Of a DNA stretch of 16,516 nt, positions 763-8,981 are shown in pieces (the stretch's first letter is position 1; each line of letters opens with the position of its first letter). Source of the stretch: Parcubacteria group bacterium CG08_land_8_20_14_0_20_48_21 (GTDB lineage Bacteria; Patescibacteriota; Patescibacteriia; UBA1544); the NCBI GenBank assembly GCA_002774425.1, contig PEYJ01000041.1:1-16516 (forward strand), given 5' to 3'. The position numbers and the translations under genes are program-made. The notes beneath the pieces are model-generated. The model searched no databases and had not been told where the DNA came from. It saw only the letters and a list, made by a program, of their open reading frames with translations.

Positions 763-1734
763 ATGTTTCTCCATACCTTTATTCCAGGGCCAATTGCCTG
801 GCATTTTGTAATCACGGTCGTCTACTGGTACGGTCTTCTCGTAACGCTTGGCGGTGTTGCTGGTTTTGTGTTGATTGCACGGCTGGCAAAAAGTATCCAC
901 TTCCCCTTGGCGCATCTTACGAACCTCACTTTTTATACCGTTATTTTCGGTTTTCTCGGCGCGCGCGCCTTCTACGTTCTCTTTATTGAGTGGTCGTACT
1001 ACAGCACCAACACGGGAGAGATACTTAAATTTTGGCAGGGAGGCATTTCCATTCAGGGCGGCATCATCGCGGGAGCGTTTGTGGTGTGGCAATACGCACG
1101 ACACTTTTCCGGGAAAATAAAAAATCAAGAGGTCGTTCCACTTAAAGTCGTTGCGGGTGAGAGTGGTGCGAACGCTAAACAAACTTTGGTTGACGAGAAA
1201 ATTTTCCCCTTCACCTTCTGGCATCTTGCCGATATCATTGTTCCCGGTGTGGCTTTGGCGCAGGCAATTGGACGATGGGGGAACTACTTTAACCAGGAAC
1301 TGTTTGGCAAACCAACCGATCTACCATGGGGCATTCCCATTGATGTGGTGAACCGCCCCTCGGTGTACGCCGATGCACGCTATTTTCATCCCACCTTCTT
1401 ATACGAATCACTCTGGAATCTTGCCACTTGCATCGCGCTGGTTATGCTTTTCAACTCTATATATCATGCAAAATCTCCTTTTCGTCATTCCCGCGCAGAC
1501 CTGTCTACCGGACCGGCAGGCGGGAATTCATTGAAAAACCTTAGCGGCCTTGTTGCACTTACCTATCTTATTCTCTACTCACTCGGACGTTTTCTCTTGG
1601 AATTCGTGCGTATTGATGAAGTACCACTCTGGTTTGGCGTGCGCGCAACGCAAGCAACCGCATTACTTTTCATCCTCTTTGCGATTTTGGTTGGATTTGG
1701 TATACTGAAGAAACACAAGGTACGACAGACGTAA
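763..1734 (+). CDS. lgt: Prolipoprotein diacylglyceryl transferase. The track ORF starts at TTG 745; ATG 763 is the more likely start.
   Basis: Contains the Lgt signature GRWGNYFNQELFG and the C-terminal YLILYSLGRFLLEFVR motif, in a multi-TM protein. A TATAAT box sits at 740-745. The gene carries two insertions relative to E. coli Lgt, one of which is palindromic repeat copy A. Confidence 0.85.
   Translation: MFLHTFIPGPIAWHFVITVVYWYGLLVTLGGVAGFVLIARLAKSIHFPLAHLTNLTFYTVIFGFLGARAFYVLFIEWSYYSTNTGEILKFWQGGISIQGGIIAGAFVVWQYARHFSGKIKNQEVVPLKVVAGESGANAKQTLVDEKIFPFTFWHLADIIVPGVALAQAIGRWGNYFNQELFGKPTDLPWGIPIDVVNRPSVYADARYFHPTFLYESLWNLATCIALVMLFNSIYHAKSPFRHSRADLSTGPAGGNSLKNLSGLVALTYLILYSLGRFLLEFVRIDEVPLWFGVRATQATALLFILFAILVGFGILKKHKVRQT
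1484..1531. repeat. 48-bp imperfect palindromic repeat, copy A, inserted in-frame in lgt where it encodes RHSRADLSTGPAGGNS.
   Basis: gtcattcccgcgcagacctgtctaccggaccggcaggcgggaattcat. Terminal inverted 8-mers attcccgc/gcgggaat. The first 14 nt are identical to copy B. The length is 48 nt, which is 16 codons. Confidence 0.7.
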
Positions 1735-1753
1735 CACGACACACACCAATCAG

Positions 1754-1801
1754 GTCATTCCCGCGCATGACTGCCTTTCCGGTAGGCAGACGGAAATCTA
1801 T
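1754..1801. repeat. 48-bp palindromic repeat, copy B, intergenic, ending 6 nt before the pilin ATG.
   Basis: gtcattcccgcgcatgactgcctttccggtaggcagacggaaatctat. Inner perfect 6-bp stem ctgcct/aggcag. Same length as copy A and identical to it at about 33 of 48 ungapped positions. Confidence 0.7.
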
Positions 1802-1807
1802 AAAATT

Positions 1808-2203
1808 ATGAAAAATAATCACTTTCTTAAAACCATGATTGCAGTAAGCTGCTTGAGTTTATTGCTTATTTCACCGTATATGGTTTTTGCGGAGAAACCA
1901 AATGAAAGTAATATAGGAAATACCTGCGGATCGTCATCCGTGGGTAGTGGAGGGCTTGTCAATCCTCTTGGCGTATGCTCCATACCCCAGGCAATTGGTG
2001 TAGTGTTAAAATACATATTAGGCATTGTTGGATCGCTCGCTCTTGCCATGTTTGTTTACGGCGGGTTGATTTGGATGACCTCCATGGGTAACGCGGAAAA
2101 TGTGCGCAAAGGGCGTGATGTGCTCATCTGGTCTACTATCGGACTGGTTATCATTTTTGGCAGCTATGCTCTTGTAACCTTTGTCCTGCAGATTGGCTCC
2201 TAG
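1808..2203 (+). CDS. Secreted small two-helix membrane protein, TrbC/VirB2-like (type IV secretion pilin-like) family common in CPR/Patescibacteria.
   Basis: Signal peptide MKNNHFLKTMIAVSCLSLLLISPYMVFA|EKP, a Gly/Ser-rich spacer, then the pattern GIVGSLALAMFVYGGLIWMTSMGNAENVRKGRDVLIWSTIGLVIIFGSYALVTFVL (YGG..W.TS.GN.E...G...IGL.I.FGSYA). Recognised from memory of the family and not searched. Confidence 0.55.
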   Translation: MKNNHFLKTMIAVSCLSLLLISPYMVFAEKPNESNIGNTCGSSSVGSGGLVNPLGVCSIPQAIGVVLKYILGIVGSLALAMFVYGGLIWMTSMGNAENVRKGRDVLIWSTIGLVIIFGSYALVTFVLQIGS

Positions 2204-2252
2204 TTTTCAATTTATTTCCTCCGGATGAGATAATCTATACTCCAACATCCTT

Positions 2253-2341
2253 GTCATCCCATAGTCATTTCCGTCATTCTCGCGATCTCTTAGGTATTCC
2301 CGCGAGAGACCTGCCTACCGAACAGAAAGGCCGGAATCCAT
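2253..2341. repeat. Palindromic repeat, copy C, about 69 bp with a duplicated head (2273-2341), preceded by two extra partial head motifs (gtcatccc, gtcatttcc).
   Basis: gtcattctcgcga...attcccgcgagagacctgcctaccgaacagaaaggccggaatccat. Shares head gtcattc-cgcg, core gacctgcctaccg and tail ggaatccat with copies A and B. Confidence 0.6.
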
Positions 2342-5492: not shown

Positions 5493-8400
5493 ATGGCAGA
5501 ACAACAAAAACCTACATCCGAGGAGATGGGTGAAAAATCACAAAACAATAAGGAGTTTTTTCAAGAGCTCCACTCACTCGAAGAAATGTTTGATAGTTTA
5601 GATGCTGATGCTGATGCCGAAAATATTGACCTATTATTAAAAGATTTGGTAGAGAAAGCGGGTAATCAAGGTATATACCTTACTGATCAAGAAGATAATG
5701 AACTCCTCCGTGTGCAAAATAAAATAGCAGCTCGAACAACAGTAAGCGGCGCACTTACGGAAGGATTGAATGAAGTAACTCATAAGGATGTAGCTGTTTC
5801 TGATGATGCATGGCCCGGCAATAGCTTAGGGGAGGCCCTAGCACAGGAGCTGAAAAAAACTAGAAAAATGCGCGCAACATCAAAAATTGATGACCAAGGG
5901 GAACAACCAGAATTCATTGAAGGCATAGAAAGTACTCATGCAACGGAAAATAAAGAAGAAAAATTTCCTGAAAATTTTGCAGATAAGCTTACTGAATTGA
6001 ATGAGCTTTGTGTCAACCGTACTTCTTCTGTTGATGCTATGGATTTATATACTGACACGCAACGTATGTATGCGAGCATGACTCCTGAAGGAAGGGGTAA
6101 AAGGACAAAATATAAGACAGAGGATTTTGCACGTAGAGTTCAGGCATGTAAAAAAGATACGAAAAATTGGAAGCCTGAAGATTTTATAAAACTTCTCGCA
6201 AAGCACTATACAGCCGCAACATCGGTATATGAACAGCAACAGAGTGAAGAAAAGAGCAATGGCGACGTAACCAGCACACCACATGATGTTGCAGAAGCGA
6301 CTGAACCAATTATAGCCAGGGAAGGAGTCGGTGCAGTAAGTTCGGCTTTAGAAACATCATCTACAATAATATCTTCGGAAAACGTTTTGAAAGAGGATCA
6401 TCCAGAGGCTGCTACTCCGACAAATGATGGAGTAGAAAGTTCTGCAGAGCCGATAGGACTTAACGTAATACCGGATATTGAGCCAAAAGAGCTTTCTGGT
6501 TATCGTGAGGAGATGCTGGTAAGTTTATCGCGTACCATAGATAGGCATGGTGAGGTGCTTGCGGAGGCTGATGAGGCAGTTAAACAATACAAACGCGAAC
6601 AGGCTGCGGAAATTATTTTGCAAACCAACCCAGCATTGCGGAGGCTTGCACAAGAAGACAACAATAATTTTGCCGTGTTGGTAAAAGAATTTTCCGATGC
6701 GTTCAGCAAGGATTCAGCATATGCCGATGAACGGCAGGAATTTGACGTTGCAGGACACAAGGTATATTTGGATGACCAAATGTATGTTGCGGCACTTGGT
6801 CAGGTACGCCAGCGCGAATTTGCTGCCCAAGTGTATGGAAATCGCCATCTTTGGCAGATATTGAAAGAACTTCCCGGCAATCTCTCTACCAAGGAAATTC
6901 CCGATGTGGAAGCCGAGGTACAATCTCGGCAGAGCAAGCGCATGAAGAAAGGAAAAAAAGCTGGACACTATGCCACTACCGCAAAAGTACAAAAAATGCA
7001 GCACGAGCTGCTGGCAGCGGAAACTGCTGATGCCATGGTGGTTCTCGCCAAAGAAGATGTGGCGGCACACGCATTGGACACTGTATTGGATGAGCGGATA
7101 CGCTTTGAAGATATTCGGGCAAAGAACAGCAAGCTGGACAGTGCAACCATAAATTTTTTGCGGGACAATAAGACATCACTACGGCTTGGCGGGGTAGTGG
7201 TGGCTGCCGGGCTTGGCGCTGCAAGCGGCGGACTCTTGGCGGGAGCGGTTGCGGGCGGCGTGCGCATTGCGCATATGAGTGTCGGCATGGCCGCCGGTGG
7301 CGGTTCCAAAAAATTGTTGGACTGGGTTGAAGATAAATGGCTAAAGGAACGCGATGCAGAAAGAGCGCAAGCGATTATAGATAAAGCAAGAACCGAAATA
7401 AGCGGCATCATCCGTGAGTTTGGCGCTGATCAGAAAAATGTGGAAGACGCGCATACTCAAGAAGAAAAAGCCGCGGCATTGCAAAAGCGTCAACAGACAC
7501 GTAACAGTCTGACAAAAGCGTTTGCCGCCGCGCAGCATAAACTCTCCATAGAAGATGCACGTAAACTGCACCGCGAAATAGGTGAAACACTCGCGGCTTC
7601 TACTGCGGGCATAGTTATGGGGATGCAAGCGGGGGCATTTGTGGATCAATTTTTCCCGCAAGCTCCGGAAGATCCCGCAATACCTACCTCTGCACCAGAT
7701 TCTGTAATGCCGGAAACTGTGTCCGGTGAAACGACCGCACCGCATGAGGCTATAGCGCCTGAAGTCGCGCCAATGGAAACGGGTCCTGTGGCAAGTCCGG
7801 TTGAACAAACATCAAGCACCGTTCAAACAGCTCAAGCTATGCACGAAACTACAGAAGATTCTCCTGTGTCCGGTGAAACGACCGCACCGCATGAGGCTAT
7901 AGCGCCTGAAGTCGCGCCAATGGAAACGGTGCAGTGGTTTGGTGAGGGAAATACCGTATGGGCGCAAGCGGATCATGTTCTCAAACAAGGTGCCTTTGAT
8001 AATTTAATAAAAGTTGCACGCGCTTCGGGAGTGGATATGGATGAGGTGCATACATTCAATGACTTAACACCGGCACAGCAAACCTATATCATAGATTGGC
8101 TGAAGGACATGGTGGTGGCACATCCGGAAAATTTTGGCTTGCAAGCGGGAGCTGACGTGGAGCATGGATTTTCCAAGAGCATGCATCTGGATTTCACGAA
8201 TGCATTGGAAGACCAAGGCGCAAATATTATGGCGCACATGCAGAAACTCTCACTGGACCAGCTTGCGAACATTCAGCACAATTTGGATATTGCACACCGG
8301 GCGGTAAGCGCGGGCATTCACTCTACATCGGAAAATCTGGGTCATCTTCTTGGCAATAACACTATGGAAGCATGGGTGGTAACGGGCGGTACCGAGGTAA

Positions 8401-8981
8401 CGCAAGAACATTTTACGGCACTTGCCGCCTTACAGCAGAGTGGCATGATCACGGCTGATCAGTTTGCTCATTTAACGTCCGAGCAAATCAATAACTATCT
8501 GGCATTTACGGATGCGCATCAGGGATTAGCGGCGAGCCAGGAAAACATTGTGGCAATACTCAACGGTCAGGGCGATATCGCGCAGCATGTGGCGGAACAT
8601 GCATCCTCTGCCGCCGTATCACCTCTGGAAAATGTTGAGGAGGTGCAGGTTTTCAAACCCGAAATTGAGAAGGTGGTAAGAGAAGCCATGCGACCAAAGC
8701 GTTGGTGGAATATCCCGGGAAAGGCGTTGGACAGGGTGAGTGGTGATTGGGAGCATAATTGGCAATTCTTTAAAGATCAGAACGTAGATGACCTATTGAA
8801 GAATCGGATAACTGGCCACGCGGGAGAATACGGTATACTTGAGGGTATGCACAAACGTGCGCTTCGGGAATTTATACATGTTGCATTGGGAAAAGGCATC
8901 ATACAACCTACTGACAGTGGAACTCCGATGAAGGTCGGCGAAGCTATCCGGCAGATTGCGATCTATAATAGAACTCACTAA
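5493..8981 (+). CDS. Large (1162 aa) hypothetical protein with an acidic low-complexity N-terminal half, two Gly-zipper-like hydrophobic segments separated by a coiled coil, a Pro/Thr/Glu-rich repeat linker and a C-terminal globular region of about 350 aa.
   Basis: Long uninterrupted frame and no N-terminal signal peptide. Hydrophobic segments are LRLGGVVVAAGLGAASGGLLAGAVAGGVRIAHMSVGMAAGGG and AGIVMGMQAGAFV. Contains the tandem peptide SGETTAPHEAIAPEVAPMET twice. No known domain recognised. Confidence 0.7.
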   Translation: MAEQQKPTSEEMGEKSQNNKEFFQELHSLEEMFDSLDADADAENIDLLLKDLVEKAGNQGIYLTDQEDNELLRVQNKIAARTTVSGALTEGLNEVTHKDVAVSDDAWPGNSLGEALAQELKKTRKMRATSKIDDQGEQPEFIEGIESTHATENKEEKFPENFADKLTELNELCVNRTSSVDAMDLYTDTQRMYASMTPEGRGKRTKYKTEDFARRVQACKKDTKNWKPEDFIKLLAKHYTAATSVYEQQQSEEKSNGDVTSTPHDVAEATEPIIAREGVGAVSSALETSSTIISSENVLKEDHPEAATPTNDGVESSAEPIGLNVIPDIEPKELSGYREEMLVSLSRTIDRHGEVLAEADEAVKQYKREQAAEIILQTNPALRRLAQEDNNNFAVLVKEFSDAFSKDSAYADERQEFDVAGHKVYLDDQMYVAALGQVRQREFAAQVYGNRHLWQILKELPGNLSTKEIPDVEAEVQSRQSKRMKKGKKAGHYATTAKVQKMQHELLAAETADAMVVLAKEDVAAHALDTVLDERIRFEDIRAKNSKLDSATINFLRDNKTSLRLGGVVVAAGLGAASGGLLAGAVAGGVRIAHMSVGMAAGGGSKKLLDWVEDKWLKERDAERAQAIIDKARTEISGIIREFGADQKNVEDAHTQEEKAAALQKRQQTRNSLTKAFAAAQHKLSIEDARKLHREIGETLAASTAGIVMGMQAGAFVDQFFPQAPEDPAIPTSAPDSVMPETVSGETTAPHEAIAPEVAPMETGPVASPVEQTSSTVQTAQAMHETTEDSPVSGETTAPHEAIAPEVAPMETVQWFGEGNTVWAQADHVLKQGAFDNLIKVARASGVDMDEVHTFNDLTPAQQTYIIDWLKDMVVAHPENFGLQAGADVEHGFSKSMHLDFTNALEDQGANIMAHMQKLSLDQLANIQHNLDIAHRAVSAGIHSTSENLGHLLGNNTMEAWVVTGGTEVTQEHFTALAALQQSGMITADQFAHLTSEQINNYLAFTDAHQGLAASQENIVAILNGQGDIAQHVAEHASSAAVSPLENVEEVQVFKPEIEKVVREAMRPKRWWNIPGKALDRVSGDWEHNWQFFKDQNVDDLLKNRITGHAGEYGILEGMHKRALREFIHVALGKGIIQPTDSGTPMKVGEAIRQIAIYNRTH
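7717..7781 (+). repeat. Copy 1 of a perfect 65-bp in-frame direct repeat inside the large ORF.
   Basis: ctgtgtccggtgaaacgaccgcaccgcatgaggctatagcgcctgaagtcgcgccaatggaaacgg, identical to 7864-7928. Confidence 0.85.
7864..7928 (+). repeat. Copy 2 of the 65-bp direct repeat (offset 147 bp, which is 49 codons).
   Basis: Identical to 7717-7781. Confidence 0.85.

Follow-up and report, generated by a model that had tools for sequence, protein, structure and literature searches.

We analysed a 16,516-nt stretch of DNA from a Parcubacteria group bacterium (contig PEYJ01000041.1; henceforth the window), in which three copies of a palindromic repeat of about 48 nt lie in and around two adjacent genes: lgt, encoding prolipoprotein diacylglyceryl transferase, and a gene for a pilin of the type IV secretion system (T4SS) type. 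The three copies are quite probably old, decaying long-form copies of a cross-phylum hairpin repeat that is tagged with CGTC and is of the repetitive extragenic palindrome (REP) kind, namely CGTC-1, which is the same as dRS3 or the Neisseria Transformation Sequence (NTS) and as Rickettsia palindromic element 6 (RPE-6). The window population belongs to the Parcubacteria, within the Candidate Phyla Radiation (CPR), from Crystal Geyser-type groundwater; related bins include 'Parcubacteria group bacterium CG2_30_48_51'. The readable sequence of the window genome consisted of the window and its flanks (~35 kb). The copies are as follows:

1483..1531 (48-nt unit 1484-1531), + strand: copy A, with a CGTC head, an outer stem of 8 perfect base pairs, ATTCCCGC/GCGGGAAT, and an inner hairpin that has decayed; profile E=1.6e-10
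1754..1801, + strand: copy B, in the spacer between lgt and the pilin gene, with the inner stem CTGCCT/AGGCAG whole and the 3' outer arm decayed to ACGGAAAT; profile E=9.8e-11
2253..2284, + strand: three partial 5' heads ahead of copy C, GTCATCCC at 2253, GTCATTTCC at 2264 and GTCATTCTCGCG at 2273
2293..2341, + strand: core of copy C, 49 nt, in the pilin 3' untranslated region, the most decayed of the three, with 7/8 pairs in the outer stem and a CCA tail; profile E=2e-4

A repeat search returned these copies as the top direct-repeat family of the window (1484-1527, with 1754-1797 at 73% and 2294-2337 at 68%), confirming the original prediction of a three-copy repeat within 860 bp. The motif GTCATTCCCGCG is present exactly at 1484 and 1754, with one mismatch at 2273 and with two mismatches at 2293. 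At ≤2 mismatches there are five matches in the window against 1.4 expected, and five were reached in 1 of 200 shuffles. All three copies have the same orientation as transcription. We also built a profile solely from the elements of other genomes and searched it in the ~35 kb of the window genome and in two short contigs of relatives, where it found nothing beyond A, B and C; all copies in the readable sequence thus sit within the same 860 bp. A search pattern that A and B also meet had set the initial 23 nt of this profile, and the independent evidence is therefore the match of the 3' half. An Rfam search matched tRNAs and the tmRNA and returned no family for the repeats. The start-to-start spacings of the copies (1484, 1754 and 2294) are 270 and 540 nt, exactly 1:2, which is probably a coincidence.

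The copies have decayed to different degrees. The original prediction gave each of them terminal inverted 8-mers and an inner stem: the arms are perfect in A and pair at 7/8 positions in C, and the inner stem is intact in B, but the 3' arm of B and the inner hairpin of A have decayed. Copy C had been placed at 2253-2341; the degenerate heads at 2253, 2264 and 2273 are indeed present, but the core occupies only 2293-2341. The head reads CGTC in copy A (1483-1486), CGTC with the preceding C in the partial head at 2273, GGTC in B and GGT- in the core of C, and the tails are TCA, TCT and CCA in A, B and C, the pan-bacterial master having CCA. When folded, copy A reached -9.7 kcal/mol (z = -1.8), but the outer hairpin no longer forms in B or C, whose folds are no better than those of shuffled sequences (z = -1.15 and -0.03).

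We compared the copies with described repeats. CGTC-1 REPs have a CGTC head (or TGTC/CCTC), an 8-bp stem starting with AT, a 4-nt loop and a tail that is mostly CCA, and Di Nocera, De Gregorio & Rocco (2013) equated them with dRS3 of Neisseria and RPE-6 of Rickettsia conorii (PMC3733652). The NTS, CGTCATTCCCGCGMAVGCGGGAATCYRG, contains the dRS3 repeat, and its single-stranded DNA form is cut by the GIY-YIG nuclease SsnA (PMC11893778). The head and 5' arm of copy A (16 nt, CGTCATTCCCGCGCAG) and its 3' arm GCGGGAAT match the published NTS and the CGTC-1 features. Head and outer stem shared by the family read CGTCATTCCCGCG...GCGGGAATCC; in the long form, the NTS sequence CGTCATTCCCGCG-MAG-GCGGGAATCC has a second palindrome, CCTGCCTnnCCGGnAGGCAGG, nested in its loop. 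The loop of the window copies is accordingly 24 nt long (~21 nt extra), against published loops of 3-4 nt, and loops of other lengths have been noted for Bradyrhizobium CGTC-1 only (PMC3733652). Judged by sequence, the window repeats belong to this known superfamily (CGTC-tagged REP, dRS3/NTS, RPE-6) as a long-loop variant with a nested hairpin. The long form itself is not covered by the published definitions and is widespread over phyla. The suggestion that the repeats resemble RPEs and REPs that tolerate in-frame insertion is supported, and almost literally so, since the repeats have the head and stem of CGTC-1 REPs. The description of the family as novel did not hold, since the same 46-48-nt element is found in many phyla, including other CPR genomes.

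To describe the long form, we scanned species-representative genomes (one per species) for GTCATTCCCGCGN{5,6}CTGYCT and examined 8-kb loci; there were at least 120 matching loci. Complete long forms, as recognised by a regular expression, were present in 62 of the 120 loci listed, including a few tandem-head or other variants. Their consensus is GTCATTCCCGCG-MAGG-CCTGCCT-GYCCGGY-AGGCAGG-CGGGAATCC, the length is 46-48 nt, and the master 48-mer is GTCATTCCCGCGCAGGCCTGCCTGTCCGGTAGGCAGGCGGGAATCCAG. Hosts among the matches listed are Gamma-, Beta- and Deltaproteobacteria, Bacteroidota, Ignavibacteriota, Chlorobiota, Omnitrophota, Melainabacteria, Elusimicrobia, Acidobacteria and Chloroflexota, and an identical 46-mer is common to five of these listed loci from different phyla. 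At least 10 CPR genomes carry the long form (Daviesbacteria, Falkowbacteria, Doudnabacteria, Moranbacteria, Paceibacterota, Nealsonbacteria and other Patescibacteria), the other CPR genomes having 2-4 matches each among the matches listed. The further copies anticipated by the original prediction are thus abundant in other genomes, but the ~35 kb of the window genome holds none. Elsewhere, the same outer stem encloses other inner hairpins. The pattern GTCATTCCCGCGN{5,6}CTGYCT had 0 matches in viral contigs, the canonical 48-mer had no match among PLSDB plasmids, and the inner-hairpin sequence was found in no paper in the literature searched.

Several further observations concern the parts of the element. 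The inner palindrome cCTGCCTG(T)CCGGTAGGCAGg alone is a multi-copy repeat in IMG/VR contigs (L047-L082), for example in IMGVR_UViG_3300038551_000082, and reaches at least nine copies on a single contig of 28.8 kb. In L059 the palindrome stands directly after a GIY-YIG open reading frame (ORF). Tandem heads, that is, one or more orphan 5' halves (GTCATTCCCGCG and ~10 nt) directly 5' of a complete element and with no matching extra 3' halves, recur in unrelated contigs (L028, L033, L034, L039-L046, L102 and L172) as well as at 2253-2284 of the window. A metagenome-assembled genome (MAG) labelled Candidatus Bathyarchaeia (L151) carries a near-complete long form and a GIY-YIG ORF on a contig binned as archaeal, which is either cross-domain spread or a binning error.

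In-frame copies inside genes are on record for CGTC REPs, which are mostly transcribed and 3' of ORFs (PMC3733652). About a fifth of the 62 regex-matched long forms sit within open frames of ≥150 aa, and the Pfam-confirmed host genes with in-frame long forms encode an E2 acyltransferase, a reverse transcriptase, DNA polymerase III delta' and a PKD-domain protein. Short forms have also entered lgt itself: among the 120 best Lgt homologues, the other variable loop of one (P0004) contains a short NTS, GTCATCCCCGCGGAAGCGGGGATCCAG, read as VIPAEAGIQ, and that same loop of another (P0088; L204 3334-3412) contains an in-frame inverted NTS doublet that is REPIN-like, with a 27-nt spacer. Genes for IS-type DDE transposases lie ~1 kb upstream of this doublet on the P0088 contig. 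In-frame tolerance is a general property of the family.

The age of the window copies was assessed from their divergence and from related loci. Identity to the master 48-mer is 40/49 for A, 41/48 for B and 36/50 for C (72-85%), and identity between copies is 38/50 for A-B, 38/49 for A-C and 33/50 for B-C (66-78%). Because the copies are closer to the master than among themselves, as would be the case for separate insertions that decayed independently, the comparison shows them to descend, apparently star-like, from one master. The protein collection held only two moderately close relatives, L015 (Lgt 63% identical) and L017 (Lgt 57%). L015 keeps the ftsK-lgt-pilin synteny and has recognisable degenerate remnants at sites B (...AAGGAATCCATA immediately ahead of the pilin ATG) and C (GTCATTCC heads and a short imperfect hairpin 3' of the pilin gene), and at site A no more than a stretch of weak similarity. 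In L017 the spacer between lgt and the pilin gene is 13 nt, the Lgt loop is shorter and there is no element. At least the intergenic insertions B and C appear to pre-date the split from L015. Ten assemblies of the window population are identical across all three copies, and the repeats are thus fixed and invariant in the population. Given the L015 remnants, the ten invariant assemblies and the absence of a further copy in the ~35 kb, the window copies are most likely old, inert relics rather than working parts.

The sole polymorphic spot in the locus across the ten assemblies lies at 1936-1947 of the pilin gene, where we found the alleles ATCCGTGGGTAG and ATCCATAGCTAG and a 12-nt deletion. This patch belongs to the N-terminal, exposed part of the mature protein and is a run of N in one assembly.

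The copies are set among the following features, in the order in which they occur:

18-680: 3' end of ftsK, the start of the local gene order
763..1734, + strand: lgt (PF01790, E=2.6e-55, and homologue alignment), host of copy A
1808..2203, + strand: T4SS-type pilin gene (PF18895, E=7.6e-9), with copy B on its 5' side and copy C on its 3' side; orthologues in L015 and L017
2355..2381, no strand: terminator-like hairpin 3' of copy C
2422-2450: strong promoter-like site, between the terminator-like hairpin and the gene for a Band_7 protein, which follows in the gene order

The 3' end of copy B is 6 nt ahead of the pilin ATG (1808), in agreement with the original prediction. Since the terminator-like hairpin lies downstream of copy C, copy C is inside the lgt-pilin transcription unit, and both B and C occupy untranslated parts of this unit. 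Further along the window, an ORF of 1162 aa (5493-8981), for which we found no Pfam match, contains a perfect 66-nt direct repeat (7717-7782 and 7864-7929, 147 nt apart). Gene calls for this ORF vary by assembly (L001, L007, L009 and L010 versus the rest), which suggests a variable repetitive protein.

Translation confirmed that copy A is exactly 48 nt long and keeps the frame of lgt, within which it encodes RHSRADLSTGPAGGNS from 1483. In the homologue alignment these 16 residues are absent from every Lgt homologue of ≤63% identity, and they fall in a loop whose length differs across homologues. Unrelated orthologues thus lack the peptide, and its description as an insertion rather than ancestral Lgt sequence holds. 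This loop is probably cytoplasmic, between the fifth and sixth helices, if the topology of the E. coli protein applies; the PDB alignment covered the region poorly. Read in the frame of copy A, the canonical 48-mer gives RHSRAGLPVR and then a TAG stop. Copy A differs from the canonical sequence in its loop (ACCGGACCGG) and is open, as expected if only open copies of 3n length survive within genes. Copy A has survived because it is 48 nt long, has no stop in the lgt frame and is sited in a length-variable loop.

A second part of lgt also differs from its relatives. Loop 1 (1111-1210) holds a lineage-specific insert of ~30 aa, KIKNQEVVPLKVVAGESGANAKQTLVDEKIFP, absent from the Lgt of L015, L017 and E. 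coli. We considered this region as a second palindromic insertion on account of its 8-nt terminal inverted repeats, GGGAAAAT/ATTTTCCC, but rejected it, as its fold is indistinguishable from shuffles (z = 0.04). It holds a stretched near-copy of the sequence that the relatives have there (TTGCGGG..GCGAAC..ACTTTGG) and looks like a local duplication or expansion, not a palindromic element.

We asked which genes accompany the element. Clustering of the ORFs of the 120 loci listed gave one recurrent small family, single-domain GIY-YIG proteins (PF01541) of 85-105 aa, present in six of these loci (8 kb each) as well as in one viral contig. Three of the loci have elements immediately on both sides of the gene: in L135 (Moranbacteria) a short form lies upstream at a distance of 29 nt and an inverted one follows 18 nt downstream, in L102 there are several elements on either side, and in L200 a short form is on one flank and a long form on the other. 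For Ssn nucleases the gene layout NTS-ssnA-NTS has been described (PMC11893778), and the three brackets show this layout, with a putative Ssn-type gene between the repeats. Homologues of the GIY-YIG protein are very many, with >5500 matches to a CPR query; none of the best 120 of these was attributable to the window organism. GIY-YIG proteins of ~95-105 aa (P0129-P0248) are 70-76% identical among MAGs of Moranbacteria/Parcubacteria, Omnitrophota and Nitrospirae, an unusually high value. Such identity between distant hosts fits horizontal movement.

A route of spread can be proposed from these loci. The elements would act as single-stranded DNA hairpins recognised by a small single-domain nuclease of the Ssn type, and the nuclease gene, typically bracketed by repeats, would make up a unit resembling an insertion sequence (IS) that moves between phyla. 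By analogy with SsnA and NTS in Neisseria, we tentatively raise a broader possibility, to which we give a rather low probability: the long form might be an undescribed sub-family that moves between phyla with a highly conserved single-domain GIY-YIG nuclease, with a range that includes the reduced genomes of CPR bacteria and possibly archaea; within the CPR, the two together might gate recombination driven by uptake at surface genes, that for the pilin among them.

Five points weigh against the reading of the window copies as decayed CGTC-1-type repeats spread with an Ssn-type nuclease. The 24-nt loop breaks the published definitions, both the 4-nt loop of CGTC-1 and the pattern of the Ssn-related motif (SRM). 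No GIY-YIG or other candidate enzyme was found in the window and its flanks (~35 kb). The GIY-YIG ORFs of other CPR genomes, candidate members of the SsnA family (cd10448), matched no solved structure or NCBIfam model. For copy A, no clean empty site can be defined, as the Lgt loop of L017 is merely ~10 aa shorter and has a different sequence there; a TTTTC/GAAAA mini-palindrome that flanks copy A, with a similar one in L017, was considered as such a site and set aside because the alignment is ambiguous. Finally, the shared transcription orientation of all copies is also compatible with a role at the RNA level.

Such a role, in which the copies have been co-opted in the lgt-pilin transcript as an mRNA-stabilising or processing hairpin or as ribosome-binding context for the pilin start, seems unlikely to us. 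All copies are in transcription orientation and 5' of the terminator at 2355-2381, as would suit it, and REPs are mostly transcribed and downstream of ORFs (PMC3733652). Moreover, no part of the L015 remnant is better kept than the 3' end of copy B, GGAAAT (AAGGAAT in L015), which lies ~12 nt ahead of the pilin ATG. Yet the folds of B and C do not surpass those of shuffled sequence, there is no Rfam family match, and L017 has the same gene pair with its 13-nt spacer and without the element.

Mobilisation of the repeats as REPINs by a RAYT, a tyrosine transposase of the IS200/IS605 type, in place of a GIY-YIG nuclease is likewise improbable. In Neisseria, ATTCCCGCGCAGGCGGGAATC was regarded as a population of REPINs linked with a Group-2 RAYT (bioRxiv 10.1101/2021.07.10.451892), and the inverted doublet in the P0088 lgt has the shape of a REPIN. 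However, CGTC REPs did not flank any RAYT in the work of Di Nocera et al. (PMC3733652). Among the ORFs of the 120 loci listed, GIY-YIG was the sole recurrent small family and none was RAYT-like, and the window copies are single and direct, 270 and 540 nt apart, not inverted pairs.

The original prediction also proposed that the repeats are an active mobile or recombinogenic element that brackets the pilin gene and drives the exchange of pilin cassettes, which we consider very unlikely. The pilin gene is indeed flanked by two co-oriented copies and has the strain-variable 12-nt patch at ~1936-1947, and in Neisseria NTS/dRS3 repeats cluster near surface-protein genes, where an NTS-gene-NTS arrangement affects the integration of transforming DNA (PMC11893778). 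Against the shuffling of cassettes stand the ten assemblies, in which the repeats and the remaining pilin gene are identical; the variable patch lies within the gene and has no relation to the repeats. L015, which has the same layout with decayed remnants at 63% Lgt identity, and the loss of the outer hairpin in B and C also speak against it. The C-terminal part of the pilin is nearly identical in L015 and L017, and no pilin homologue was found near the elements in the other loci fetched.

Chance similarity, or an ancestral origin of the 16 residues in Lgt, has a negligible probability: there are only three copies, two of them with weak hairpins, and the loop varies in length in all Lgt homologues, but A and B match the profile at E ~1e-10, the same 46-48-mer lies in unrelated genes and spacers across phyla, and no Lgt homologue below 98% identity has the 16 aa.

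Read as decayed long-form repeats, the window copies look like inert scars, save for the 16-residue loop peptide that one of them gave to Lgt. The wider interest lies in the long form, a 46-48-nt non-coding sequence kept, at times base for base, from Gammaproteobacteria to Patescibacteria. It falls outside the defining search patterns, so published censuses of CGTC REPs and Ssn-related motifs would miss it. Annotators gain a sequence to mask, since peptides such as VIPAQACLSGRQAGIQ, RHSR...GGN and LDSRLPTGQAGLRGND are element-derived, and the REP/Ssn story is extended to CPR bacteria.

We compared the window repeats with the systems that they resemble. Like MITEs, or miniature inverted-repeat transposable elements (e.g. 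Correia/NEMIS), they are small non-coding repeats near or in genes. They measure 48 nt with 8-nt arms, whereas MITEs have terminal inverted repeats of 15-30 bp and sizes of 70-300 bp; the ends of the window copies show no target-site duplication, and there are no long inverted repeats around a non-palindromic body. With REPIN-RAYT systems they share short hairpin repeats and long vertical persistence, as well as a doublet in a family relative (P0088). They differ in being direct singlets 270 and 540 nt apart, not inverted pairs within ~130 bp, and in having no RAYT-like recurrent ORF among the 120 loci listed.

The likeness to RPEs is that of a palindromic element in-frame in an essential gene, which adds a short peptide in a tolerant region and is absent from orthologues. 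RPE-1, however, has a greater length and an unrelated sequence, of the RPEs only RPE-6 and RPE-4 are of the CGTC type, and the ~35 kb of the window genome has a single intragenic copy. Closer still are NTS and SRM, which are identical in CGTCATTCCCGCGMAV...GCGGGAATCY apart from the loop; here too copies flank a surface-protein gene, and in other genomes, not in the window, long and short forms bracket small single-domain GIY-YIG genes. The window copies fail both CGTCATTCCCGCGMAVGCGGGAATCYRG (≤1 mismatch) and, by inspection, the SRM pattern HGTCWYN(0-2)YYVSBRHN(0-5)WNVSBRGN(0-2)RNCYNB because their loop is too long (~21 extra nt), and the ~35 kb contain no ssnA-like gene. CGTC-1 REPs differ in their published 4-nt loop from the 24-nt loop with a second conserved palindrome found here. 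They share with the window copies the CGTC head (in A), the 8-bp stem starting with AT (8/8 in A, 7/8 in C, with the 3' arm decayed in B) and the CCA-type tail, and like them are often transcribed, lie 3' of ORFs and, within genes, add in-frame peptides.

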